Virus record (IMG/VR): IMGVR_UViG_3300006872_000002
Span: 1-49,552 of that record
Source of the DNA: a virus
Lineage: Duplodnaviria > Caudoviricetes
Length of the DNA: 49,552 nt
Direction: 5' to 3' (one strand)
Below are positions 35,966 through 49,525 of the stretch, piece after piece. Both the position numbers and the translations under genes were made by a program. Position 1 is the first letter of the stretch; each line of letters starts with the position of its first letter. The notes under the pieces were generated by a model that saw nothing but the letters and a program-made list of their open reading frames with translations, was not told the DNA's origin and made no database searches.

Positions 35966-37150
35966 TCACCCCTTTACACAAAGGACTTGACGAAGTTCTG
36001 CAACCACAGTGACCAAATCATTTTGGTCCATCATCACTTGATCGATTGGTTTGTATGCAGCGGGAATTTCATCAACCACACCTGCATCTTTACGACACAC
36101 AATACCTTCTGTCTGCTTAACCACATCCTCTGCAGTGTAAAGTGACTTTGCTTTACCTCGTGACAATTGGCGACCTGCGCCATGTGAACAGGAACAAAAA
36201 GAATCAGGATTCCCTAATCCTTGCACAATGTATGAACGGGTACCCATTGAACCAGGAATAATACCCAAATCATCCATGCGAGCCCTCACTGCACCCTTTC
36301 TAGTAACAATGACATTCTCTCCAAAATGATTCTCACGTTCTGCGTAGTTATGGTGACAATTGACCATTGTGATTGGTTCAAGTCGGTCATCACCAACGAA
36401 ACTTGATATTTCGTCAAGAACTAATGACATCATAATTTCACGATTTTTCATAGCATAAGACTGTGCCCACTGCAAATCCGACCAATAAGCATTGAATAAT
36501 TCATGTCCCTCTGGCAAATATGCCAAATCTGGGTTTTCTAATTTAATCATGAATGTCTTCATTAATTCTTTTGCTCGATCAATGTAATAATTTCCAATAA
36601 CATTTCCAATTCCACGAGAACCAGAATGCAACACTACCCACACATTATCTTGTGTGTCCAGACACACTTCAATAAAATGGTTCCCCCCACCCAATGTTCC
36701 CATCTGTGACAACATCTTATCCTGTCGATCTTTTTTCACTTCCACAGGAAGAGAGTTGAACCCCCTAAGACCCTTCCAGAAAAGAGTATGGTTCACTGGG
36801 GTTTTATGTTGATCCTGCCCAACCGGAACGGCTTTAGAAATATAAGAAAATAAATCATCCAAATTATCTGGTAAATGTTGACCTTTGAGAGGAAGCATCG
36901 CTGCCATCATCCCACATCCAATATCCACACCCACTGCAGCAGGGACCAATGCTCCCTTCGTTGCAACAACAGATCCAACAGTAGCACCCTTACCATAGTG
37001 GACATCAGGCATCGCAGCAACATGTTTAAAGACAAATGGTAGTCCTGCAGTCTGTCTCAATTGGACTTCAGACTGAGAATCCACATTATTGGTCCAGATC
37101 TTAACTGGAACCGTCTGTTTTTCTCCTGTTAACACCTTTGCAACTGGCAT
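35966..37150 (-). CDS. rtcB: RtcB RNA ligase
   Basis: MPDVH.G.GAT.G, GVDIGCGM, GTLGGGNHF.E, LHSGSRG, CHHNY, PGSMG, SCSHGAGR, DE.P.AYK. Confidence 0.96.
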   Translation of the reverse strand: MPVAKVLTGEKQTVPVKIWTNNVDSQSEVQLRQTAGLPFVFKHVAAMPDVHYGKGATVGSVVATKGALVPAAVGVDIGCGMMAAMLPLKGQHLPDNLDDLFSYISKAVPVGQDQHKTPVNHTLFWKGLRGFNSLPVEVKKDRQDKMLSQMGTLGGGNHFIEVCLDTQDNVWVVLHSGSRGIGNVIGNYYIDRAKELMKTFMIKLENPDLAYLPEGHELFNAYWSDLQWAQSYAMKNREIMMSLVLDEISSFVGDDRLEPITMVNCHHNYAERENHFGENVIVTRKGAVRARMDDLGIIPGSMGTRSYIVQGLGNPDSFCSCSHGAGRQLSRGKAKSLYTAEDVVKQTEGIVCRKDAGVVDEIPAAYKPIDQVMMDQNDLVTVVAELRQVLCVKG

Positions 37151-39232: not shown

Positions 39233-40171
39233 TTATTCCCTTTCTTTATGGTGTAGGTCCATGATCGTATACAATAGATTATCACACTTCTCATCATTTA
39301 CTGTATCAGGAAGTAAAGATTTTTCTGACAATTCTTCCAACTCTACCATCAAATTCTCAAGCATTGGTGAGACATTACTAAAATGTAATTCCCCATTCTT
39401 AATTTGTTTTAGAAAGTCAACTTGTTTTAGTGGATATGTAAAATCTCCATGTGTCAAAATATCTTTCACCTGAAAGGCAGCACGGAATGCATGAGAGATT
39501 GCCTTCCAATCAATACCCTGATTGGTTTCTGCTTGACGTGCTCGTTCACCAAATTCTTTAACAAAATTCTGCAACATACCAACATAATTATCAGTAGTTG
39601 CAGAAAGAGTCATTTTCTTTCCACACACTTCATAAAACTTACTATCGTCCGATGGTCCACAATGTTCTCCAACTGGAAGAAGATGCAACACATCATGGAT
39701 CTTCTTCTTTGGGTGTTGACGAAGAGATTCTAAAACATTTTTTGCATCCGCTAACCGGCTACCTTTTATACCATACTTTGCGGCTTGTGTTCTCGCATAT
39801 CCAACAAATGATGATAATTTTCTGGTATAGAACAAATGTCTGCTCTTATGAATAATCACCCAATCCAAATTGAATGTGATCCAAAACTCACTTGGTGCAT
39901 GGAGCATATCGAGTGCAACAGTTTCACCCTTCTTTGCAAGTTCAAAGAAATAGGGAAGAGAATATAATTCTCTATCCACATCATTAGATGAATTTTTTAC
40001 ACTACTATTTGTCTTAGTATTATTTGAAATGCTCTTTGGAGTTCTGCAGAAGTAGAGTTCTCTTTTTGATGGGATAAACACCCCCTTATAATCCTTGTCG
40101 GATGAGGGGGTGTTGGTTCCATATAGATGGGAACCAAAAATCATCTCAACTAATGTTGTTCTGTTGCTCAT
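39233..40171 (-). CDS. Pol-beta superfamily nucleotidyltransferase (RlaP / T4 NrdC.11-like)
   Basis: FGSHLYGT.TP.SD.DYKGVF, F.GYA..QA.KY, DWKA.SHA.R, L..IK.G. Confidence 0.85.
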   Translation of the reverse strand: MSNRTTLVEMIFGSHLYGTNTPSSDKDYKGVFIPSKRELYFCRTPKSISNNTKTNSSVKNSSNDVDRELYSLPYFFELAKKGETVALDMLHAPSEFWITFNLDWVIIHKSRHLFYTRKLSSFVGYARTQAAKYGIKGSRLADAKNVLESLRQHPKKKIHDVLHLLPVGEHCGPSDDSKFYEVCGKKMTLSATTDNYVGMLQNFVKEFGERARQAETNQGIDWKAISHAFRAAFQVKDILTHGDFTYPLKQVDFLKQIKNGELHFSNVSPMLENLMVELEELSEKSLLPDTVNDEKCDNLLYTIMDLHHKERE

Positions 40172-40178
40172 GATATGA

Positions 40179-40207
40179 AGTATATCAAACCAATCACAAA
40201 TTGTCAA
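40179..40207 (-). promoter_or_regulatory. Sigma70-type promoter (leaderless transcript likely)
   Basis: TTGACA-17-TATACT; ATG 7 nt after the -10. Confidence 0.7.
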
Positions 40208-41291: not shown

Positions 41292-41366
41292 TGGTGGACC
41301 CTGTAGGTGCTGCCCCTACCACCTCTACAGTGTCAATGTAGTGATCTGCTGCTGATCTAAGGGTCC
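41292..41366 (-). tRNA. tRNA-Val(GAC)
   Basis: Cloverleaf, CCA, loop TT-GAC-AC; T-loop GGCAGCA. Confidence 0.85.
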
Positions 41367-41370
41367 AGAG

Positions 41371-41448
41371 TGGTCCGCCTGACAGGACTCGAACCTGCAT
41401 GATTCTGGTGTCGAAAACCAGATGACTTCCAATTGTCATCACAGGCGG
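41371..41448 (-). tRNA. tRNA-Arg(TCG)
   Basis: Cloverleaf, CCA, loop TT-TCG-AC. Confidence 0.9.
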
Positions 41449-41798
41449 CTAATAATCTCCATCCATTCCTGGTCAAGAATACAGTTCTTTGGTGCATTCT
41501 TAAACATAGGTGCTATTTGTTCGTTCGTATATCCTGCAAGACCACACCCAATACGTGTCACAATAAATCTCATCTCTGGATGTGATTCTGCAAACAATAA
41601 AAACACATCAACAAGTACTTTGATATTATTAAGAGGAAGAGGTTTTAAATTATGATCTTTGGTTGCGATGGCATATGCATTTCCTGTTAAACCTAATCCC
41701 TGGCCATATTCTGCTCCATAAAATTTCCGTGCATGAAGTGCAGCACCCTTCCCATGTCTACCAGCAAGATTTGACCCAAACACAAAAATTTCTCTCAT
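41439..41798 (-). CDS. Conserved phage protein (IFVFGSN.AG.HG.GAA; macrodomain-like)
   Basis: MREIFVFGSNLAGRHGKGAA, AYAI.TK, F.VT.IGCGLAG. Confidence 0.8.
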   Translation of the reverse strand: MREIFVFGSNLAGRHGKGAALHARKFYGAEYGQGLGLTGNAYAIATKDHNLKPLPLNNIKVLVDVFLLFAESHPEMRFIVTRIGCGLAGYTNEQIAPMFKNAPKNCILDQEWMEIISRL

Positions 41799-41811
41799 GA
41801 TATAAATTCTA

Positions 41812-41887
41812 TGGTGCCGCTGACAGGACTCGAACCTGCATCATCTTCTTTAGGAAAGAAGTTCCCGTCCAATTGGGCGACAGCGGC
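41812..41887 (-). tRNA. tRNA-Arg(CCT)
   Basis: Cloverleaf, CCA, loop TT-CCT-AA. Confidence 0.9.
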
Positions 41888-42042
41888 AATTTATTTGTTA
41901 TGAATAATATTTTGAATTACCTTTTTATGTTGACCCATTCTCTTAGAAAGAGAAATGAGATAAGATAATTTTTTAGAATTTCCACTTAATTGGTTTTTTA
42001 CTATTTTTAATAGTTCTTGTAAGTATAAAGTATTCATAGTTT

Positions 42043-42118
42043 TGGTGCCCCCGGCAGGACTCGAACCTGCATGATCCTGATTAGAAGTCAGGTGCCTTTC
42101 CAGTTAGACTACGGAGGC
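42043..42118 (-). tRNA. tRNA-Arg(TCT)
   Basis: Cloverleaf, CCA, loop CT-TCT-AA. Confidence 0.92.
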
Positions 42119-42122
42119 AATA

Positions 42123-42211
42123 TGGCGGAAGATGGAGTACTCGAAACTCATCCCCCGAAAGGAACCATCTGTTTTCGAGACAGTGCCAGCGTCCTATCTG
42201 GTTCATCTTCC
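42123..42211 (-). tRNA. tRNA-Ser(CGA)
   Basis: Long variable arm, G73, loop CT-CGA-AA. Confidence 0.9.
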
Positions 42212-42215
42212 AAAT

Positions 42216-42520
42216 TGGTGGAGGTGCAGGGTATTGCAGCCCTGGTCCAAAGAAACTAATAAAGTGGAATCTCCATGCTACTCAATCAATGACACGACAA
42301 TCGAAGGATTGAGACAACGATTGTTTGTGAAACGAAACTTCAACAACCTGAATATCACGCATCCCCACTTACAGGCTTCAGTGGACCAGCGAGCAGCACT
42401 TACGCTGCTAATGCAAAATTAGATTCGACAGTTTCAATTGCTTGTGAGATTAACGTGGACACCAGCACCCACGGCATGTCCCATCTTCTTTCGTATTCCT
42501 TGTCGATACTATTCACCCCC
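42216..42520 (-). ncRNA. ssrA: tmRNA, tag (A)VESNFALAA*
   Basis: 5' GGGGGTG...TCGAC; 3' CACCTCC-A-CCA with G3:U70; internal AACT-GTC GAA TCT AAT TTT GCA TTA GCA GCG TAA. Confidence 0.92.
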
Positions 42521-42526
42521 ATATTA

Positions 42527-42614
42527 TGGCGGAAGGTACAGGATTTGAACCTGTGTGTGTTTTACCACGCATCGCTTTCCAAGCGAGCCGAATAGGCCAC
42601 TCTCGCAACCTTCC
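42527..42614 (-). tRNA. tRNA-Ser(GGA)
   Basis: Long variable arm, loop TT-GGA-AA. Confidence 0.9.
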
Positions 42615-42621
42615 AAAAATC

Positions 42622-42694
42622 TAGGAGCGGATAATCCAGGATCTCTGAAATTATCCGCGTCCCGTATGCCCGCTTTCTCACATGGAGAACGGGT
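42622..42694 (-). ncRNA. Unknown two-hairpin structured spacer RNA
   Basis: cccg-ttctc/gagaa-cggg and gcggataat/attatccgc stems between two Ser tRNAs. Confidence 0.45.
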
Positions 42695-42701
42695 CTTAAA
42701 C

Positions 42702-42791
42702 TGGCGGAGAGCAGAGGACTCGAACCCCATACCCTTTCAGGTACAATCCGCTTTCAAGACGGTTGTGTTAACCCGTAACACTTTACTTTCC
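42702..42791 (-). tRNA. tRNA-Ser(TGA)
   Basis: Long variable arm, loop CT-TGA-AA. Confidence 0.9.
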
Positions 42792-42797
42792 AAAACA

Positions 42798-42872
42798 TGG
42801 TGCTCCTACAGGGTGTCGATCCCTGTCTTCCAGATTGAGAATCTGGCGACCTAGCCGGTAGTCGATAGGAGC
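42798..42872 (-). tRNA. tRNA-Glu(CTC)
   Basis: Loop TT-CTC-AA; T-loop ATCGACA. Confidence 0.88.
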
Positions 42873-42876
42873 ATTA

Positions 42877-42951
42877 TGGTGGACCACCACGGTACTGCCC
42901 CGTATTCCCCAGGTTAAGAGCCTGGTGCATCACTATTAATGCTTGTAGTCC
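42877..42951 (-). tRNA. tRNA-Lys(CTT)
   Basis: Loop CT-CTT-AA; T-loop GGCAGTA. Confidence 0.85.
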
Positions 42952-42956
42952 GTCTA

Positions 42957-43033
42957 TGGTGTCCCCGACTGGATTTCAACCAGTGTCTCCACCTTCGCAG
43001 GGTGGTATGATATGCAGGCTTCACTACGGGGAC
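42957..43033 (-). tRNA. tRNA-Arg(GCG)
   Basis: Loop CT-GCG-AA. Confidence 0.88.
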
Positions 43034-43038
43034 ATATA

Positions 43039-43113
43039 TGGTAGACGGTAGTGGTACTGCCCCACTCTTGTCTCGCGTGTAAGGCGAGTGCATCCCTTCT
43101 CTGCCAACCGTCC
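43039..43113 (-). tRNA. tRNA-Val(TAC)
   Basis: Loop CT-TAC-AC; T-loop GGCAGTA. Confidence 0.85.
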
Positions 43114-43120
43114 GTTAAAA

Positions 43121-43197
43121 TGGAGCCCCTTGTTGGACTTGCACCAACCGTTTCCACTTTACCAAAGTGGCGTGTCAACTACCTCTACTTAAGGGGC
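43121..43197 (-). tRNA. tRNA-Thr(GGT)
   Basis: Loop TT-GGT-AA; T-loop TGCAAGT. Confidence 0.85.
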
Positions 43198-43205
43198 GCA
43201 AAAAT

Positions 43206-43515
43206 CTGAGTCCAACTATACCCGGCATTCTGTATTCTTCTGTCATTTCTCTAGGAGTATCATTACTGATACCCTCAAGCCACCTACCCGTTCGTTTTGT
43301 GCGAGCAGCACACGAACCTATTTGGTGTTGCACCAGATGGAGATTGCTCGTTTCACCCACCACCAACACCGTAGTGCGTCAAATCATTCGGTGGTGACTC
43401 GTCTCTGTGGCTCTAATCATCAGGTCACCCTGTGTGGTTGTTAACCACCATCTTGCTCTTGGTGTGCCGAAGTTCCTCTAGGTCTGTTACCCTAGCGACA
43501 GAATGTTGAACTCAG
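43206..43515 (-). ncRNA. rnpB: RNase P RNA (compact, about 310 nt)
   Basis: P1 ctgagttcaac/gttggactcag; GAGGAACTTCGGCA pairing with ACAGAATGCCGGGTA (P4); AGAGCCACAGAGA and GGTGAAACG (L11/12); P18 with GTAA tetraloop; CCTAGAGAAATGA before P2. Confidence 0.88.
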
Positions 43516-43689
43516 TAGTCCTTTCTTTACTTTAATACTACCTCGTAACAAATGATGTTTTCCACATATATGACAAAGAGAATCTTTATATTTACGCAAT
43601 TTGCATTTTATACAATACGACCAAAATTCTTCTCCGTTCTTTCCAAATCCAAATGAATTATGATTACATAACATTTGTTTTTTAGTCAT
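43492..43689 (-). CDS. Small Cys/His-rich hypothetical protein
   Basis: 65 aa, CxxC pairs; fills the gap between tRNA-Leu and rnpB but overlaps the rnpB 5' end. Confidence 0.4.
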   Translation of the reverse strand: MTKKQMLCNHNSFGFGKNGEEFWSYCIKCKLRKYKDSLCHICGKHHLLRGSIKVKKGLLSSTFCR

Positions 43690-43696
43690 AATAATA

Positions 43697-43773
43697 TGGT
43701 ACCTAGGGTGGGAGTCGAACCCACAGAAACCTGTTTTTGAGACAGGTATGTTTGCCAGTTACATCACCTAGGT
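43697..43773 (-). tRNA. tRNA-Leu(CAA), short variable loop
   Basis: Loop CT-CAA-AA; 77 nt. Confidence 0.88.
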
Positions 43774-43938
43774 ATTAATCTGTGAAAGAACTTCCAACTT
43801 TGCTTCAATAACTCTGATGTCATTTGCCGCGTCACAAACACCATGCCAATCATGCTCATCCATCTTTGTTCTCAAATATGATATCATAACTGATTTTGAA
43901 TGAATAAGAAACTCAATTTGTTTTTCTTTACCATTCAC
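43768..43938 (-). CDS. Small hypothetical protein (YL..K....DWHGV.DAA.D.R)
   Basis: GTG start with GGAGG RBS; 56 aa. Confidence 0.65.
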   Translation of the reverse strand: MNGKEKQIEFLIHSKSVMISYLRTKMDEHDWHGVCDAANDIRVIEAKLEVLSQINT

Positions 43939-43955
43939 AATATACCTCCATAATA

Positions 43956-44033
43956 TGGTGCCGTGGGTGGGAGTCGAACCCACAAACGAATCGTTTTAAG
44001 CGATCCAGGTATGCCAGTTCCCTTCACCACGGC
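43956..44033 (-). tRNA. tRNA-Leu(TAA), short variable loop
   Basis: Loop CT-TAA-AA; 78 nt. Confidence 0.88.
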
Positions 44034-44034
44034 G

Positions 44035-44080
44035 TTATCGAGTTTAACACATATTTACCACTTATCGAGTTTAACACATA
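44035..44080. repeat. 19-bp direct repeat in a tRNA spacer
   Basis: ttatcgagtttaacacata at 44035-44053 and 44062-44080. Confidence 0.9.
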
Positions 44081-44084
44081 AACA

Positions 44085-44159
44085 TGGAGCCGCTTGACGG
44101 AATCGAACCGTCTTATCTGCTTTACGAAAGCAGCACATCACCGTGTATGTTTAAGCGGC
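44085..44159 (-). tRNA. tRNA-Thr(CGT)
   Basis: Loop TT-CGT-AA. Confidence 0.88.
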
Positions 44160-44176
44160 AATGTCTATTAAACTGT

Positions 44177-44251
44177 TGGTGCCGCCGGTAGGAGTCGAAC
44201 CCACCTGAATCCGGTTAAAAGCCGGGAGCATAGCCGCTCTGCCACGACGGC
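44177..44251 (-). tRNA. tRNA-Lys(TTT)
   Basis: Loop CT-TTT-AA. Confidence 0.9.
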
Positions 44252-44258
44252 GTTACAT

Positions 44259-44336
44259 TGGTCTGGATGGTGGGATTTGAACCCACAATTTCTCGTCTCC
44301 GAAACGAGAGGAGTAGCCTGGTTCTCCTACATCCAG
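44259..44336 (-). tRNA. tRNA-Pro(CGG)
   Basis: Loop TT-CGG-AG; C1-G72, A73. Confidence 0.9.
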
Positions 44337-44349
44337 TTATGTTTCTATT

Positions 44350-44426
44350 GATGGTGGCTAGCCATCCTGGGAGATTGCACTATGCCATCTCACTTCGCTA
44401 CAATGGTTAAATTGTGTGAGACCCAG
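44350..44426 (-). ncRNA. Unknown structured spacer RNA
   Basis: Nested ctggg/cccag, tctcac/gtgaga and acaat/attgt stems plus a gatgg/ccatc hairpin. Confidence 0.45.
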
Positions 44427-44441
44427 TATATATTTAAACTT

Positions 44442-44517
44442 TGGAGCGGGTTATGGGAATTGCACCCATACGAACAGGGTGGAAACCTGTCATGCTGCTG
44501 TTGAACATCAAACCCGC
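44442..44517 (-). tRNA. tRNA-Gly(TCC)
   Basis: Loop TT-TCC-AC; U73; T-loop TGCAATT. Confidence 0.88.
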
Positions 44518-44528
44518 ATATTCAATTT

Positions 44529-44603
44529 TGGAGCGGATGGTGGGAGTCGAACCCACGTGATCTTCCTTGGCAAGGAAGCACATAACCGTTCTGTCACATC
44601 CGC
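44529..44603 (-). tRNA. tRNA-Gly(GCC)
   Basis: Loop TT-GCC-AA; U73. Confidence 0.9.
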
Positions 44604-44754
44604 ATTCTTTTTTACGAGGGATTTCACTTTTCTTATTGTTCCGGCTCTTTTTTCGCATAGGATGTAACTCCCATCTCTTTTCCTCATCGGTATCGATGAG
44701 TATTTCGAGCAAACATTACAGTTTGGCTAACCTCGAACCGTCTATCCTCATAAA

Positions 44755-44829
44755 TGGCGCGGAATGGAGGACTTGAACCCCCTCGGCTACCTCTTCAGGG
44801 TAGTGTTCTGCCAGTTAAACTAATTCCGC
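44755..44829 (-). tRNA. tRNA-Phe(GAA)
   Basis: Loop CT-GAA-GA; atypical G37 and G73. Confidence 0.85.
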
Positions 44830-44833
44830 ATAT

Positions 44834-44908
44834 TGGCTCCAGGGGTAGGGATCGAACCTACGATAGCCTGATTAACAGTCAGGTGCCGTACCGCTTGGCT
44901 ACCCTGGA
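44834..44908 (-). tRNA. tRNA-Asn(GTT)
   Basis: Loop CT-GTT-AA; U1-A72, G73. Confidence 0.92.
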
Positions 44909-45111
44909 ATAATATCTTTACATCGTCTCATTACTTTGCATGTTGGACAATATAGCATTGTCCCATATTGTTTTCTATATGGACTATTTGCTGCGTACAC
45001 ATTACCATATACCTTATACCTTAAAATCATTTATACAATATGTGCATCGAACAGTTTTTCTTTTTGGAAACCGTCTTTCACCAAACCATCCCACATATCA
45101 CCAAAATTTTT

Positions 45112-45311
45112 AGGAGAGACACCTTTCATCATAGCGATATAACCGGCATGCTATGACTCTCTGAACTGCTTGTACCATTTAGGAGTATTGCTCTAGCCTT
45201 ATTGAGCACTCCAATCAGGATTATTAACATGTTTGATGGTATCAGATACCATCTCACCTGATCTCAGTTTCGTGTCCCCTCAGAGTAGGTCCAGATTTCT
45301 CTGTTCTCCTT
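45112..45311 (-). ncRNA. Unknown ~200-nt multi-stem ncRNA with its own promoter
   Basis: Ends pair (aggagaaca/tgtctctcct); internal atcagg/cctgat, gatggtat/ataccatc, ggagt/actcc and catagc/gctatg stems. Confidence 0.6.
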
Positions 45312-45318
45312 AATTTTA

Positions 45319-45347
45319 AGAATACCACAATCTAAACTAAAAGTCAA
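45319..45347 (-). promoter_or_regulatory. Sigma70-type promoter within the RNA island
   Basis: TTGACT-17-TATTCT with TGTG. Confidence 0.7.
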
Positions 45348-45348
45348 C

Positions 45349-45424
45349 TGGTAGAGGTATCTAGATTTGAACTAGAACTAAAAGATTCAGAATCTTCTGT
45401 GCTGCCGGGTTACACCATACCTCC
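45349..45424 (-). tRNA. tRNA-Gln(CTG)
   Basis: Loop TT-CTG-AA. Confidence 0.88.
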
Positions 45425-45426
45425 AT

Positions 45427-45957
45427 TTAATTACCAGGTAAATCAATTCCTTCATTAAACCAACGATAGATACTTCTCACTTCTTCAAATGCAATAGGTT
45501 TATACTCTGTCTGCTCAACACAAACACAAATATACCATGGATCCTGTAACTGATTTGCATGTGTGTGTCCATGCACATTTGCTTTAAACCGTCCCTTACT
45601 CTCTGGATGCACAGGAATATGTGACAACAACATCTGATCCATCACATGATACCCACGAACATCACGAAAATACTTTAGGTAATCAGTGATCTTGAAAATA
45701 TCATGATTCCCTTTAATGAGAACCTTGTCACCATTCAATCTATCTAGGATAGCGAGTGCTTTTCTTGCTATGACTACATCTCCCAGGTGATACACTTTGT
45801 CATGGGGTTTAACGATCCTATTCCATTCCTGGACCATGTATTCATCCATTTCCTCTGGATTATCCCATGGTCTCAACTTCGTTCCGTCATTCCGAAGGAA
45901 CTTACAAACCCCTGCATGACTAAAATGTGTATCTGCTGTCAGAAATATGTTACTCAT
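45427..45957 (-). CDS. Calcineurin-like phosphoesterase
   Basis: ADTHF.H, VYHLGD, KGNHD, LSHIP, NVHGH.H; start at MSNIF. Confidence 0.9.
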   Translation of the reverse strand: MSNIFLTADTHFSHAGVCKFLRNDGTKLRPWDNPEEMDEYMVQEWNRIVKPHDKVYHLGDVVIARKALAILDRLNGDKVLIKGNHDIFKITDYLKYFRDVRGYHVMDQMLLSHIPVHPESKGRFKANVHGHTHANQLQDPWYICVCVEQTEYKPIAFEEVRSIYRWFNEGIDLPGN

Positions 45958-46096
45958 CAGATTTACTTTTTGCTGCATTCCATGCCGCAACACATGACCT
46001 AATATTCAGAGTCCTACGATCTTCTAAAGGAAGAGAGAACCACCATTTTTTGAACTCTTCTGAAGTTTTTAGATTTATAATATTCATATTACTCAT
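45950..46096 (-). CDS. Small hypothetical protein (F.KWW...AAWNAA)
   Basis: 48 aa, overlaps the phosphoesterase start. Confidence 0.5.
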   Translation of the reverse strand: MSNMNIINLKTSEEFKKWWFSLPLEDRRTLNIRSCVAAWNAAKSKSDE

Positions 46097-46102
46097 AATG
46101 TA

Positions 46103-46176
46103 TGGAAGGGGGTAGTGGTACTGCCCCACTGTCTGTTGGTTCAAAGCCAACGGTCCTACTATTGAACGAACCCCCT
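46103..46176 (-). tRNA. tRNA-Gln(TTG)
   Basis: Loop CT-TTG-AA; T-loop GGCAGTA. Confidence 0.85.
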
Positions 46177-46191
46177 ATAACCTTTCAACCA

Positions 46192-46279
46192 TGGCGGAAG
46201 TGGAAGGATTTGAACCTTCGTGGGTGTTACCCCGCATCCCTTAGCAGGGGAGCCTATTAAGCCTCTCTAGCACACTTCC
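46192..46279 (-). tRNA. tRNA-Ser(GCT)
   Basis: Long variable arm; loop CT-GCT-AA. Confidence 0.9.
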
Positions 46280-46293
46280 AAAAACATTTACAT

Positions 46294-46393
46294 TGGTGCA
46301 GCCCAGATCCGTTAGGATCTCACCCTAGAACAACCGGAAGTTAATTACGCTCCCTTTATTCTAGGTACAGAGTGGAGCGACCACAAGGACTGC
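46294..46393 (-). ncRNA. CCA-ended tRNA-like RNA with internal pseudoknot
   Basis: Acceptor GCAGTCC/GGGCTGC-A-CCA, stacked agatcc/ggatct hairpin, interleaved cgctcc/ggagcg and cctagaa/ttctagg stems. Confidence 0.65.
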
Positions 46394-46399
46394 ATACGA

Positions 46400-46474
46400 T
46401 GGAGTCGCCGATAGGATTCGAACCTACATACAACCGCTTTGCAGGCGGCGACCTAGCCTTTCAGTCACGGCGAC
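46400..46474 (-). tRNA. tRNA-Cys(GCA)
   Basis: Loop CT-GCA-AA; U73. Confidence 0.9.
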
Positions 46475-46481
46475 ATTAAAT

Positions 46482-46557
46482 TGGCGCACCTGACGGGTAA
46501 CGATCCCGCTTCATTCTTGATTGACAATCAAGCGCCTATCCTACTGGCTCCAGGTGC
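46482..46557 (-). tRNA. tRNA-Asp(GTC)
   Basis: Loop TT-GTC-AA; G73; T-loop ATCGTTA. Confidence 0.88.
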
Positions 46558-46565
46558 AATATTCT

Positions 46566-46631
46566 GATCGGTATCTTTCTACTTGTTACGACCCCCAAAG
46601 GGGGATGGGAATTGCACCCATGTCTCCGACC
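46566..46631 (-). ncRNA. Circularly permuted tRNA-like RNA (YrlA-like domain), copy 2
   Basis: ggtcgg - agac - T arm atggg/TGCAATT/cccat - closed acceptor ccccc/ttt/ggggg - D-like loop - ccgatc. Confidence 0.65.
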
Positions 46632-46643
46632 TTGCTCTGTAAC

Positions 46644-46727
46644 TGGTGGATCATCAAGGAGTCGAACCTTGTGAGAATTAACGACTGCTTTACAGGCAGC
46701 CCCGCCTCCGTAACGGTTTAATGATCC
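46644..46727 (-). tRNA. tRNA-Tyr(GTA)
   Basis: Loop CT-GTA-AA; variable arm. Confidence 0.88.
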
Positions 46728-46735
46728 GTATTTTT

Positions 46736-46764
46736 ATTATAACAAACTATACACTAAAAATCAA
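46736..46764 (-). promoter_or_regulatory. Sigma70-type promoter within the tRNA island
   Basis: TTGATT-17-TATAAT with TG. Confidence 0.7.
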
Positions 46765-46766
46765 GG

Positions 46767-46855
46767 TGGTCCACCCGTAAGGAATCGAACCTTATCGAGA
46801 CACCAATCTAGTGTGAGGGGTTTATAAGACCCCCTTGCCTCCAAGGCGCGGGTGG
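46767..46855 (-). tRNA. Non-canonical tRNA with TAT (Ile) anticodon, long variable arm, shrunken D arm
   Basis: CCACCCG/CGGGTGG-A-CCA; ggggt-CT TAT AA-acccc; V-arm acact/ggtgt; D arm gcct-tgg-aggc. Confidence 0.8.
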
Positions 46856-46861
46856 AAATTT

Positions 46862-46939
46862 TGGTGTCGGTGGGGAGAGTCGAACTCCCAAACACTTGGT
46901 TCTAAGCCAAGTAGGTATGCCAGTTCCCTTCACACCGAC
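46862..46939 (-). tRNA. tRNA-Leu(TAG), short variable loop
   Basis: Loop CT-TAG-AA; 78 nt. Confidence 0.88.
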
Positions 46940-47331
46940 GATTTCTTTCTTCTCCAAGTTGGTGTCTGTGAATGGCAGTTTGGACATAGAAATCTTAAAT
47001 TGTCCCTACTACTATTCTTTTTATTACCATCTTTATGATCCAACTCCAAAACAAGTCTGCCACCCAGCCACTCACTTAATCCACAAAGACACTTGCCACC
47101 CTGTTCCTCTAATACTTTTCTTCTTTTCTCTGGTATATTATACTCGTTCCAAGAAAGAGTGTTATATCGTTTTTCCCGTATTATTTTCTTTTTTTCTACA
47201 GCAAGGCACCAATCATCTTTACCAAAAAGTTTTCTTCTTGAATCATATCCTTTTTTGAAACCAGCCTGGTGAACTCTTCTACCCTTAAGGGAATCTGATA
47301 TCTTTTTGTTTATTGCCTTTTGATCCCTCAT
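46930..47331 (-). CDS. HNH homing endonuclease
   Basis: C.CG..EW....L.LELDHKDGN..N....NLRFLCPNCHSQT. Confidence 0.9.
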   Translation of the reverse strand: MRDQKAINKKISDSLKGRRVHQAGFKKGYDSRRKLFGKDDWCLAVEKKKIIREKRYNTLSWNEYNIPEKRRKVLEEQGGKCLCGLSEWLGGRLVLELDHKDGNKKNSSRDNLRFLCPNCHSQTPTWRRKKSSV

Positions 47332-47344
47332 AATAAATCCTAAA

Positions 47345-47418
47345 TGGTGGCGGTAGAAGGAATTGCACCTTCTAGATAGGACTTATGAAATCCTTCTGCT
47401 TCGCTTGTGCTTACCGCC
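47345..47418 (-). tRNA. tRNA with CAT anticodon (Met elongator or Ile2)
   Basis: Loop TT-CAT-AA; weak D arm; T-loop TGCAATT. Confidence 0.75.
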
Positions 47419-47422
47419 GTCA

Positions 47423-47499
47423 TGGTAGCGGGTCAAGGAGTTGCACCTTGAACTTGAGTTTATGAGACTCAACGGGTCACTGTCCCCTTCCACGCCGCA
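47423..47499 (-). tRNA. tRNA-Met(CAT), initiator-like acceptor
   Basis: 1:72 mismatch plus GCGG/CCGC; loop CT-CAT-AA; lacks the three G-C pairs in the anticodon stem. Confidence 0.7.
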
Positions 47500-47512
47500 A
47501 ATTTTTAAAACC

Positions 47513-47623
47513 GGCACTGTGCTACCCGTTACACTAAACTCTTCATCAGTCTTACAGTCTGCAGCCCGGAATCTTAATTCTATAACTGATTTCTGAGTCG
47601 CGGAATCGAACCGCTCTAGTGCC
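47513..47623 (-). ncRNA. Circularly permuted tRNA-like RNA (YrlA-like domain), copy 1
   Basis: ggcact - ag - T arm gcgg/TTCGATT/ccgc - gactc [extended atcagt/actgat hairpin] gagtt - TA - D arm gtgt/aacgggta/gcac - agtgcc. Confidence 0.78.
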
Positions 47624-47630
47624 TCATTCC

Positions 47631-47708
47631 TGGTGTCGTTGGGGAGAGTCGAACTCCCAAGCAACTGGCTCTCGACCAGTTAGGTATACCAATTCCCTTC
47701 ACAACGAC
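47631..47708 (-). tRNA. tRNA-Leu(GAG), short variable loop, C33
   Basis: Loop TC-GAG-AG; near-paralogue of Leu(TAG). Confidence 0.8.
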
Positions 47709-47716
47709 GATATTAA

Positions 47717-47810
47717 TTGTGTAGGTGCCTAAGTTCACGTCTAGACTCTGTTACTTGGGGCATATGACCTCCCCACCTACAGCAGCGACTATGTTCTACA
47801 ACCTACACAA
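47717..47810 (-). ncRNA. Unknown ~95-nt RNA closed by a 10-bp terminal stem
   Basis: ttgtgtaggt ... acctacacaa. Confidence 0.5.
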
Positions 47811-47817
47811 ATTTATA

Positions 47818-47890
47818 TGGTAAGGTCCTATCTTGGATGACAAACAGTTTCAAGTCTGTTTGCCTGAGCATCGCACTCAGGATTACTTAC
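47818..47890 (-). ncRNA. T-arm-less tRNA-like RNA with CCA and a Ser(TGA)-like anticodon loop
   Basis: gtaag/cttac-ca end; cctgagt/gctcagg hairpin; caaacag-aCTTGAAAa-ctgtttg hairpin; no T arm. Confidence 0.55.
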
Positions 47891-47895
47891 ACATT

Positions 47896-47973
47896 TGGTC
47901 TAGGGGGTGGGATTTGAACCCACGGTTTCTCGCTTCCAAAGCGAGAGGATCAACCAGACTTTCCTACCCCTAG
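47896..47973 (-). tRNA. tRNA-Pro(TGG)
   Basis: Loop TT-TGG-AA. Confidence 0.9.
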
Positions 47974-47979
47974 ATATTT

Positions 47980-48053
47980 TGGTGGACCAGTCGCCGAATC
48001 GAACGGTGTTGACCTTACGCAGAAAGCCCATGGTGTCCACACCATACCAGCCC
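47980..48053 (-). tRNA. Aberrant Ala-identity tRNA-like RNA (8-bp acceptor, G3:U70, 6-nt anticodon loop)
   Basis: GGGCTGGT/ACTGGTCC-A-CCA; long D hairpin atggtgt/acaccat; TTCGATT T-loop. Confidence 0.55.
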
Positions 48054-48062
48054 ACAATAATT

Positions 48063-48137
48063 TGGCGCTCCTTGTGGGTATCGATCCCACTCCGCCGGCT
48101 TGAAAGGCCGGAATCCTAGCCAGTAGACGAAAGGAGC
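48063..48137 (-). tRNA. tRNA-Glu(TTC)
   Basis: Loop CT-TTC-AA; T-loop ATCGATA. Confidence 0.9.
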
Positions 48138-48143
48138 ATAATT

Positions 48144-48218
48144 TGGTGGAGGCTGGCGGTTCTGCCCCGCCGACTTCTCGGTGCAAGTGAGATGGTTTCC
48201 TAATTAGCCTAAGCCCCC
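48144..48218 (-). tRNA. tRNA-Ala(TGC)
   Basis: G3:U70; loop CT-TGC-AC; T-loop GGCAGAA. Confidence 0.85.
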
Positions 48219-48225
48219 ATATTTT

Positions 48226-48512
48226 TAGCCCACATTTTAATCATCCCTAACCGGACAAACACCAAAAAGTGCATGCGGAGTTGCTTACCGGCTTGGGAGT
48301 GTTGCGAGTAGCACTAGCACTTTAACGGCTACGGTACATCTCGCGTCCCAAACCTACATTTTGTTACCCTTTTACCCCACCGTGTGTAGTGAGAACCCCT
48401 TGATATTATCACAAGGTAAGGATAACTCTTTTAAGGTCGCCCCGCCGGAGACATCTTAATGTTGGTCCTGTCATAAGCAGCCGAGCAACATTCTCAATAT
48501 CCCATTGGGACG
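48226..48512 (-). ncRNA. Unknown ~290-nt ornate structured RNA
   Basis: cgtcccaa/ttgggacg closing stem; aatgttg/caacatt; gttatcctt/aagggtaac; gcgag/ctcgc; tccc..gccgg/ccggt..ggga; no ORF of 60 aa or more. Confidence 0.6.
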
Positions 48513-48513
48513 T

Positions 48514-48587
48514 TGGGGTGATCGGTGGGTAACGCTCCCACTTTTCCTGGGCCACAACCAGGCGCATTTCTTTTATGCTACGACCAC
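48514..48587 (-). tRNA. tRNA-His(GTG), no encoded G-1
   Basis: Loop TT-GTG-GC; C73; T-loop AGCGTTA. Confidence 0.85.
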
Positions 48588-48589
48588 AA

Positions 48590-48665
48590 TGGAGCCGCTG
48601 ACTGGACTTGCACCAGCCTAATCCTCCTTACAAGAGAGGTGATCAACTACCTGACCCACAGCGGC
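48590..48665 (-). tRNA. tRNA-Thr(TGT)
   Basis: Loop CT-TGT-AA; T-loop TGCAAGT. Confidence 0.87.
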
Positions 48666-48680
48666 ATTCTTATAATATGT

Positions 48681-48742
48681 ATAGGAGATAGGATTTATGG
48701 GATCAGTTGTATGTCCTGAAAGCCAACCTACACAACTCCTAT
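48681..48742 (-). ncRNA. Small structured element downstream of the HNH gene
   Basis: ataggag/ctcctat terminal stem; shares TTGTGTAGGTTG with the 47717-47810 element. Confidence 0.4.
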
Positions 48743-48783
48743 GCATCTGGAGTATGCTTGGTGTTTACATCACTCCCAACATA

Positions 48784-49308
48784 TTACTTTAACTCACAAT
48801 TCCAATACAAGTAATCTGCCCACGTTTCTGGCATCTTACGCAACCCAATTGTCACGGTCACAACTTGTGACCAGATCGGTTGCTTTGGTTTCTTCAACAA
48901 CTTCATTCCTGCTTGCTCTGGTGTTCTTCCTTCTTTCTTTGAATTACAAGGAACACAAGCAGTTACGATATTTTCCCATGTTTTCACACCACCCTGTGAA
49001 ACTGGTTTTACATGGTCAAAAGTCAATTCTTCTGAATCAAACTTCTGTGCACAATACTGACATGTAAACCCATCTCTTGTAAAAATATTCAAACGAGTAA
49101 ACTTCACAGGTGCTTTTCTACGAAAACGAACCGGAACAAGCATTCTCAAAACTGAAGGAATCTTCATGCTGAAAGAGATTGAATGAATCTCTTCTTCATG
49201 TTCCTCCAAGACCTCAACCTTACCAGTCCAAAGCAACGTAATTGCTCGTTGCCAGTTAACAACTTGTAAGGGTTCATATGAACTGTTTAACAGCAATGTC
49301 ATATGCAT
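48784..49308 (-). CDS. McrA-like HNH endonuclease
   Basis: LLLN.SYEPL..V.WQRAI.L, F.R.NIF.RD..TCQYC, LT.DHV.P.S.GG..TWENIV.AC..CN..K. Confidence 0.92.
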   Translation of the reverse strand: MHMTLLLNSSYEPLQVVNWQRAITLLWTGKVEVLEEHEEEIHSISFSMKIPSVLRMLVPVRFRRKAPVKFTRLNIFTRDGFTCQYCAQKFDSEELTFDHVKPVSQGGVKTWENIVTACVPCNSKKEGRTPEQAGMKLLKKPKQPIWSQVVTVTIGLRKMPETWADYLYWNCELK

Positions 49309-49332
49309 GATGCTTCTCCCAACGTTTCTATC

Positions 49333-49361
49333 ACTATAACAAATCCAAATTCATTTGTCAA
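49333..49361 (-). promoter_or_regulatory. Sigma70-type promoter driving HNH and downstream RNAs
   Basis: TTGACA-17-TATAGT with TG. Confidence 0.75.
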
Positions 49362-49370
49362 CTACAAACT

Positions 49371-49444
49371 TGGCACCGGATGCAGGAGTCGAACCTGCGC
49401 CAACGGTTTTGGAGACCGTCATGCTTCCGTAACACCTATCCGGT
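49371..49444 (-). tRNA. tRNA-Trp(CCA)
   Basis: Loop CT-CCA-AA; G73. Confidence 0.9.
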
Positions 49445-49451
49445 ATATATA

Positions 49452-49525
49452 TGGTACGCCTCCACGGAATTGCACCGCGATCATCCGCTAATCAGGCGGA
49501 GGTACTTCTATTGTACGAGAGGCGT
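49452..49525 (-). tRNA. tRNA-Ile(GAT)
   Basis: Loop CT-GAT-TA (atypical U37); T-loop TGCAATT. Confidence 0.83.

Follow-up and report, generated by a model that had tools for sequence, protein, structure and literature searches.

Covariation of A18 and G55 in the elbow of tRNAs and tmRNA encoded by a T4-like phage

Introduction

In the canonical tRNA elbow the D-loop is connected to the T-loop by G18–pseudouridine55 and G19–C56, with the reverse Hoogsteen pair T54–A58 inside the T-loop (RF00005), and the G18–pseudouridine55 contact is called conserved in all three domains (PMC7912444, PMC4810234). We find that a T4-like myovirus uses a second, matched combination of bases at this contact. In its array of RNA genes 12 of the 39 tRNAs carry G at position 55, this G goes together with A at position 18, and the same combination is found in the phage tmRNA. 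The association of A18 with G55 is a covariation and not a matter of chance. Judged from sequence comparison these genes probably encode working tRNAs and a working tmRNA, the elbow of which is predicted to be held by A18–G55 instead of G18–pseudouridine55.

The DNA analysed, referred to below as the window, is the whole of IMG/VR record IMGVR_UViG_3300006872_000002 (positions 1 to 49,552; 49,552 nucleotides), with an estimated completeness of about 30%. The genes of the source phage include baseplate wedge proteins, a gp32-like single-stranded DNA-binding protein, RtcB, a DNA ligase and an RlaP-family nucleotidyltransferase; megablast and blastn searches of isolate phages gave no close relative of the window. 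The RNA gene array occupies positions 41292–49525 on the minus strand; in it, 39 tRNA genes with a cloverleaf fold are joined by an RNase P RNA and the tmRNA (Table 1). N73-CCA is encoded after each of the 39 tRNAs, each anticodon is present in single copy and all 20 amino acids are covered.

Results

Identification of the G55 tRNAs

ARAGORN counts 30 tRNAs in the array, to which Rfam adds a type-A RNase P RNA, the tmRNA and extra tRNAs. Because both lean on the canonical T-loop, we used a scan of our own, in which the score depends on the cloverleaf and the encoded CCA alone and the T-loop sequence is ignored. Its scores are bimodal in the window, with background at 37 or below and true tRNAs at 39 or above. 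The 12 tRNAs with G55 found in this way span nine amino acids and are exactly those listed in a preliminary description of the sequence. ARAGORN misses eight of them and does not report the tmRNA; a sensitive search with RF00005 recovers ten, nine of which reach the 29-bit cut-off, and Rfam at E values up to 10 fails on two (Val TAC and Lys CTT).

The T-loops are of three kinds, TGCAAnT in six tRNAs, GGCAGnA in five and AGCGTTA in one. All 12 genes parse as cloverleafs with a 7-bp acceptor, a 5-bp T-stem, a 7-nt T-loop, a 5-bp anticodon stem and a 7-nt anticodon loop with U33, the exceptions being the incompletely paired acceptor of the CAT tRNA at 47496 and the D-arm of the CAT tRNA at 47418 (Table 1). 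With the canonical elbow they share the cloverleaf, the 7-nt T-loop and its G53–C61 closing pair, G19–C56 (C56 is present in all 12), purine 57 and the encoded CCA. They differ from it by G in place of U55 and A in place of G18, and in half of them also at positions 54 and 58, where five have G54 with G58 and one has A54 with U58; the other six keep U54 and A58.

Covariation of positions 18 and 55

Position 18 was placed by the slot that GG occupies in canonical D-loops of equal length, and base 18 was then read as the base preceding one able to pair with position 56. By this rule ten of the 12 G55 tRNAs of the window have A18 followed by G19, and in the CAT tRNA at 47496 the AG sits one base off the slot. 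The window's U55 tRNAs have G18 in 27 of 27 cases, as GG in 26 and as G18–C19 with G56 in tRNA-Arg (GCG). The observation of the preliminary description, that AG mostly replaces GG in the D-loops of G55 tRNAs and that GG is kept in most tRNAs with T-loops of the TTCGA type, therefore holds.

The same relationship is seen in a wider set of sequences. A search with a phosphoesterase gene that lies inside the array brought up 65 related loci in IMG/VR, and the 66 sources together gave 998 tRNAs, 663 of them unique. Among the unique tRNAs 622 combine U55 with G18, seven have U55 without G18, 33 have G55 without G18 and none has G55 with G18 (Fisher test of the 18/55 table, 3e-49, on sequences that are not independent). 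A18 could be read in 29 of the 33 unique G55 tRNAs, and both elbow states are present in 14 anticodon families, concordant every time. For a structural alignment, the check that the preliminary description had proposed, 122 unique tRNAs that share one architecture (12 G55, 110 U55) were aligned with MAFFT without gaps. Columns 18 and 55 were scored by mutual information, since base-pair scoring treats A–G as unpaired. They read G/T in 110 sequences and A/G in 12 with no discordant sequence, and their mutual information was reached in 0 of 10000 shuffles.

The swap extends to the tmRNA, as had been claimed. The D-loop analogue (5' ...AAYAGTATCGAC) reads AG in place of the GG of the Rfam consensus, and the pairing of AG with TGCAA is present both in the window and in the tmRNA of its closest relative, L002, which comes from a complete genome of 168,789 bp with 86% protein identity at the phosphoesterase.

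The outer pair of the elbow provides a positive control for this kind of analysis. Besides the C19–G56 of tRNA-Arg (GCG), the clade has A19–U56 in 18 tRNAs and U19–A56 in three, and since the 19–56 pair covaries, the genes are under selection for an intact elbow. The 54–58 pair varies as well (U:A, C:A, G:G, A:U and A:A), and purine 54 coincides with A60 in 40 of 43 unique tRNAs of the clade. Eukaryotic initiator tRNA (A54, A60) is likewise a natural case of purine 54 and of a purine–purine 54–58 pair (PMC7912444). The clade resembles it in having purine 54 with A60, but eukaryotic initiators keep U55 and G18.

Structural reading of the G55 T-loops

T-loops outside tRNA offer a precedent for G at this position. 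Those of flavin mononucleotide (FMN) and cobalamin riboswitches are UGNRA in 88.7% and CGNRA in 10.9% of cases, the best whole loop being (UGHAA)UU, and in nearly every case an adenosine is intercalated between loop positions 4 and 5; tRNA is there the exception with U at loop position 2, and GGAAG is named as an rRNA T-loop (10.1101/2022.12.26.521914). In another terminology most T-loops use a G-clamp and tRNA a U-clamp, and the closing U:A pair is in rare cases replaced by C:A, A:A or G:G, G:G making up 1% in UA-handles (PMC2615604). Eleven of the 12 G55 loops of the window fit YGNRA or GGNAG (six UGCAA, five GGCAG), and so does the CGCAAnn loop of L002; AGCGU does not fit. The UGCAA(N)U, CGCAA and GGCAG loops thus conform to the (YGNRA)NY and GGNAG forms of the riboswitch and rRNA modules, in which the partner is also an adenine (10.1101/2022.12.26.521914, PMC2615604). 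As a difference from those modules, here the loop lies in a tRNA and the partner is base 18 of the D-loop followed by Watson–Crick 19–56; the likeness is an analogy between sequences.

Since the G55 loops fit known classes and their partner is an adenine, we interpret the swap as the replacement of one T-loop/intercalator design by the other. G55, at loop position 2, would clamp an adenosine intercalated between loop positions 4 and 5, as in riboswitches and rRNA. A18 would take the place of G18, intercalating between 57 and 58, and the L-shape and the flat docking face would be preserved, docking being by way of the G19–C56 face in the known anatomy of the elbow (PMC4810234). From their chemistry we infer that G55/A18 tRNAs cannot receive pseudouridine 55 or 2'-O-methylguanosine 18, and that the GGCAG, AGCGU and CGCAA forms, which lack U54, cannot receive 5-methyluridine 54 either; this concerns half of the window's G55 tRNAs.

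Evidence that the recoded tRNAs are functional

To judge function we compared tRNAs of the same anticodon between the window and L002, which has counterparts for ten of the 12 window G55 tRNAs at 78–100% core identity. The G55 class has 204 stem pairs, of which 163 are unchanged, seven have a one-sided change, 29 a double change and five are broken, so that 199 stay paired. The U55 class behaves alike (408 pairs: 287 unchanged, 17 one-sided, 99 double, five broken). The acceptor of the tRNA-Val (TAC) ortholog has changed in a compensatory manner, and the stems of tRNA-His are identical in L002, where its T-loop is AGCATTA. Ala, Val, His and Met are served in the window solely by G55 tRNAs, and a G3–U70 pair is present in tRNA-Ala and in the tmRNA. 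Given the compensated stems and the four amino acids that depend on them, the G55 tRNAs are most likely working.

We regard it as highly improbable that the G55 genes represent pseudogenes, or tRNAs that act elsewhere than in translation, such as the non-proteogenic (NP) tRNA-Gly of Staphylococcus. Standard finders do fail on many of them, and the NP1–3 tRNA-Gly of S. aureus and S. epidermidis also lack G18–G19 and U55 and carry no pseudouridine, those of S. aureus being excluded from translation (PMC13443448, PMC4574755). NP2, however, has U19 in place of G19 and no matched A18 is reported in the available text (PMC4574755), whereas the phage tRNAs keep A18–G19, with A18 compensating G55. The NP tRNAs also serve one amino acid and cell-wall synthesis and are without strong EF-Tu determinants, whereas the phage swap spans nine amino acids. 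Compensatory changes keep the phage stems, every anticodon is unique, Ala, Val, His and Met would otherwise lack a phage tRNA, and the tmRNA of two phages has the same swap. With stems that are largely intact, conservation in L002 and anticodons that are not redundant, pseudogene status is possible for the two CAT genes only, both of which have weak acceptor or D arms. The compensatory redesign of 18/55 proposed in the preliminary description is thus borne out by two positions that covary, in tRNAs that look functional, and by the extension to tmRNA.

Several points weigh against this reading. The two CAT genes may be decaying, and some of the double stem changes counted above may compare non-orthologs. 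No RNA run containing the array stretch was found. The A18–G55 geometry is drawn by analogy with other T-loops, and for the AGCGTTA loop, with its A54 and U58, no precedent was found in the T-loop literature examined. As to origin, nearest-neighbour comparison over 46 core positions gives at most 76% identity between the window G55 tRNAs and tRNAs of more distant relatives and at most 72% with sampled G55 tRNAs elsewhere, so that either conversion in place or acquisition may account for them. Finally, 27 tRNAs of the array are canonical. Contigs from four metagenome runs gave only short, low-depth pieces on the array, with no variant at 18 or 55.

Distribution of the swap

Within the clade, mass recoding is restricted to the window (12/39) and L002 (15/39). 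A G55 tRNA is held by 15 other related loci (one holds two), in 14 of them an initiator-like CAT tRNA to which the CAT tRNA at 47496 is related, and was not found in 49 of the 66 sources. The elbow state of Thr CGT and Lys TTT differs between window and L002. The loop of tRNA-Lys (CTT) changes from GGCAG in the window to CGCAA in the L002 ortholog (CGCAATA), and more distant relatives have TTTGATT with G18–A19.

Outside the clade we sampled 3/64 parts of IMG/VR and 2/64 parts of a genome collection with one restricted sub-pattern. The IMG/VR sample yielded 119 stretches, 57 with good cloverleafs, which are mostly initiator-like CAT tRNAs but also Tyr, others and tmRNA-like ends. The genome collection yielded 126 stretches, near the chance expectation by our own estimate, and 34 of these have cloverleafs. 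Two contigs binned as Verrucomicrobiota, L316 (G041:C25) and L317 (G042:C22), carry arrays of about 20 and 24 tRNAs that are nearly all G55, with TGCAA, TGCGA, AGCGT, GGCAG and CGCAC loops. Both look phage-like, with an HNH endonuclease (of a PHROG family shared with the window), a tail protein and RtcB. By the slot rule A18 is present in 55/57 tRNAs of the IMG/VR sample, 28/34 of the genome sample and 35/43 unique G55 tRNAs of the two Verrucomicrobiota-bin arrays, in which one more may have G18, one has C and no base fits in six. Together these 134 tRNAs have A18 in 118 cases and possibly G18 in two. Four Saccharibacteria genomes have a few G55 T-arms among many canonical ones, one of them between two canonical tRNA genes, and the design is therefore not phage-specific. 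The A18/G55 design is widespread and enriched in phages, but not exclusive to them. Among named isolate phages considered as carriers of a TGCAA tRNA-Met, the Xanthomonas phages Elanor and XbC2, Pseudanabaena phage Pan5 and Caulobacter phage CcrColossus were rejected, all having canonical TTCRA.

Relation to the phage RNase P RNA

The preliminary description suggested that the redesigned elbow is matched to the RNase P of the phage. We searched for RNase P RNA in the window and in 40 of the 65 related records, including four other genomes of at least 94% estimated completeness, and found the gene in the window and the L002 genome only (1/40 related records; nhmmer was also used). These are the two mass-recoded phages, a real co-occurrence, and the specificity domain of the ribozyme lacks P13 and P14. 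A single lineage, though, amounts to a single co-occurrence. The J11/12 and J12/13 sequences are retained, the G19–C56 face is unaltered and the same array holds 27 canonical tRNAs. Moreover, in the records searched, relatives with a G55/A18 CAT tRNA show no match to RNase P RNA, and the contigs with all-G55 arrays carry none on those contigs. A match between the recoded elbows and the RNase P RNA that the phage encodes thus seems very unlikely.

Possible reasons for selection of the swap

The swap would have spread to one third of the tRNAs in this phage and, in other phages, to entire sets. The least secure step of our proposal is that it likely makes phage tRNAs independent of, or invisible to, factors of the host by which G18 or the T-psi-C loop is read. 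A host or rival nuclease, or a host modification or quality-control enzyme, may recognise these features, and recoded tRNAs would then be spared by it or independent of it. This explanation, the adaptive half of the inference in the preliminary description, is possible, and we hold it tentatively. Many isoacceptors have been recoded in parallel in the window and L002, the two phage-like contigs are essentially wholly G55, and the state of Thr CGT and Lys TTT changes between the two relatives. The genes for RtcB and the RlaP-family "RNA repair pathway" nucleotidyltransferase adjoin the array just upstream, and RtcB also flanks the all-G55 array of L317. Phage tRNAs are known to evade tRNA-cleaving defences through sequence changes (PMC10264068, PMC11464382), as in the anticodon-loop variants of mycobacteriophages and in T5 against PARIS, where phage tRNA sets likewise occur beside RNA-repair genes; AriB, a tRNase that acts in defence, reportedly recognises bases of the D-loop, one of which matters for its cleavage (PMC12409363).

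Against escape, the nuclease-read sites in published cases lie in the anticodon arm or at D-loop U16, not at the 18/55 contact. The papers checked concern these sites or the 3' tail, the available text of the Cas12a3 paper mentions neither elbow nor T-loop, and a nuclease reading G18/U55 was not identified in this analysis. The 27 canonical tRNAs that remain speak against selection by an agent that strikes all canonical elbows, and the few G55/A18 tRNAs of Saccharibacteria lie among canonical ones in chromosomes.

Neutral compensatory drift is a further possible explanation, to which we give similarly guarded weight. A18/G55 would be equally good, and fast-evolving tRNA genes would wander and copy T- and D-arms with no benefit. 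The outer 19–56 pair and the 54–58 pair also wander in the clade, the elbow state is a mosaic, and 17-nt T-arms are identical between unrelated genes (Gln TTG and Val TAC; Gly TCC and a copy in a spacer). The switch, however, needs two changes by way of a mismatched intermediate, yet discordant tRNAs number 0/33 in the clade, and elsewhere no more than 2/134 could have G18. Whole arrays are fixed for G55, and the 49/66 sources in which no G55 tRNA was found are unlike what free drift predicts.

A bolder version of the escape explanation, which we consider doubtful, is that A18/G55 marks an orthogonal phage translation kit midway through conversion to an elbow unrecognised by a defence nuclease that reads the T-loop or D-loop, or by host modification or quality control. 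Encoded by the phage itself are tRNAs that cover all 20 amino acids, along with a tmRNA, a ribozyme of RNase P and enzymes for RNA repair. If this were true, the window, L002 and the relatives with one G55 tRNA would form a natural time series of conversion.

Other features of the array

Table 1. Features of the window discussed in the text (Rfam scores in bits; the cut-off for tRNA is 29 bits)
Feature	Position	Strand	Description
tRNA-Ile (GAT)	49452..49525	-	T-loop TGCAATT; D-loop AATAGAA (A18-G19); L002 ortholog has same loop, stem changes compensatory
tRNA-Thr (TGT)	48590..48665	-	T-loop TGCAAGT; D-loop AGGTAGTT
tRNA-His (GTG)	48514..48587	-	T-loop AGCGTTA (A54 G55 U58); D-loop AAAAGAA
tRNA-Ala (TGC)	48144..48218	-	G3-U70; T-loop GGCAGAA; D-loop AATTAGGA; Rfam 37.1; missed by ARAGORN
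CAT tRNA	47423..47496	-	T-loop TGCAACT; D-loop ACAGTGA; acceptor 5/7 pairs; Rfam 27.5
CAT tRNA	47345..47418	-	T-loop TGCAATT; D-arm short, unparseable; Rfam 29.8
tRNA-Gln (TTG)	46103..46176	-	T-loop GGCAGTA; D-loop AATAGTA; Rfam 42.4; missed by ARAGORN
tRNA-Gly (TCC)	44442..44517	-	T-loop TGCAATT; D-loop TCAACAGCA
tRNA-Thr (GGT)	43121..43197	-	T-loop TGCAAGT; D-loop region GAGGTAGTTGA; weak D-stem; Rfam 42.1; missed by ARAGORN
tRNA-Val (TAC)	43039..43113	-	T-loop GGCAGTA; D-loop AGAAGGG; structure scan only (missed by ARAGORN and Rfam)
tRNA-Lys (CTT)	42877..42951	-	T-loop GGCAGTA; D-loop TAATAGTG; structure scan only
tRNA-Val (GAC)	41292..41366	-	T-loop GGCAGCA; D-loop AGCAGCA; Rfam 45.9; missed by ARAGORN
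tmRNA	42216..42520	-	RF00023 78.6 bits; G3-U70; 8-nt T-loop holding TGCAA; not reported by ARAGORN
tRNA-Arg (GCG)	42957..43033	-	Outer pair C19-G56; T-loop TTGAAAT; D-loop AGCCTGCATA; L002 ortholog A19-U56
Type-A RNase P RNA	43203..43514	-	RF00010 192.2 bits; P13/P14 absent (43 model positions)
Stray Gly-TCC T-arm copy	46605..46621	-	ATGGG TGCAATT CCCAT; inside 86-nt spacer 46643-46558
tRNA-Ser (CGA)	42123..42211	-	Canonical T-loop
tRNA, Leu anticodon TAG	46862..46939	-	Variable loop 5 nt
tRNA, Leu anticodon GAG	47631..47708	-	Variable loop 5 nt
tRNA, Leu anticodon TAA	43956..44033	-	Variable loop 5 nt
tRNA, Leu anticodon CAA	43697..43773	-	Variable loop 5 nt
tRNA-like gene, anticodon TAT	46767..46855	-	89 nt; D-stem 3 bp; D-loop 6 nt; variable region 22 nt
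RtcB	35966..37150	-	Pfam 409 bits
RlaP-family nucleotidyltransferase	39233..40207	-	

The preliminary description also assigned the swap to a permuted tRNA mimic near 46566, which we reject. The spacer at this place holds a copy of the T-arm of tRNA-Gly (TCC), exact over its length; the fold of the spacer is no better than that of shuffles (z -0.96), and no homolog was found, nor a counterpart in L002.

Some other genes of the array are unusual. The tRNA-Ser (CGA) was missed by ARAGORN and gave only a weak permuted-tmRNA match in Rfam. Bacterial tRNA-Leu has a long variable arm, but the four tRNAs with leucine anticodons do not. The tRNA-like gene with anticodon TAT is kept in L002, where 16 of 17 stem pairs are identical. 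In tRNA-His C73 is present and the base before position 1 is T, where bacteria usually encode G(-1). The visible reading frame of the tmRNA ends ...NFALAA-stop. Spacers of 100–280 nt on the minus strand at 48230–48510, 47500–47630, 45130–45350 and 44620–44750 have neither an open reading frame nor an Rfam match.

Discussion

No description of an A18/G55 tRNA elbow was found in the literature searched, which included few subscription journals and no supplements. Bacterial arrays of the Anabaena trn operon type (PMC8421152) are similar in that they bring together large extra sets of tRNAs, with RtcB discussed, but the window is from a phage, and the available main text of that paper contains no mention of T-loop, G18, U55 or G55, so that the swap is not described there.

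The A18/G55 combination would represent a second matched solution for the elbow in apparently working tRNAs and tmRNA, equal to the T-loop design of riboswitches and rRNA. The window offers a partly converted, mosaic set with graded relatives, three loop classes matched to T-loops outside tRNA, the swap in a tmRNA and an exclusive co-occurrence with a phage RNase P RNA. Since the finders in use miss G55 tRNAs (eight of 12 and the tmRNA by ARAGORN, two by Rfam), phage tRNA complements are under-counted. Because the sets are mosaic, with 12/39 and 15/39 recoded and one in more distant relatives, both designs can be compared in one genetic background, as a natural double-mutant cycle for tRNA folding, for dependence on TruB, TrmA and TrmH, and for the way in which RNase P, EF-Tu and the ribosome recognise tRNAs.

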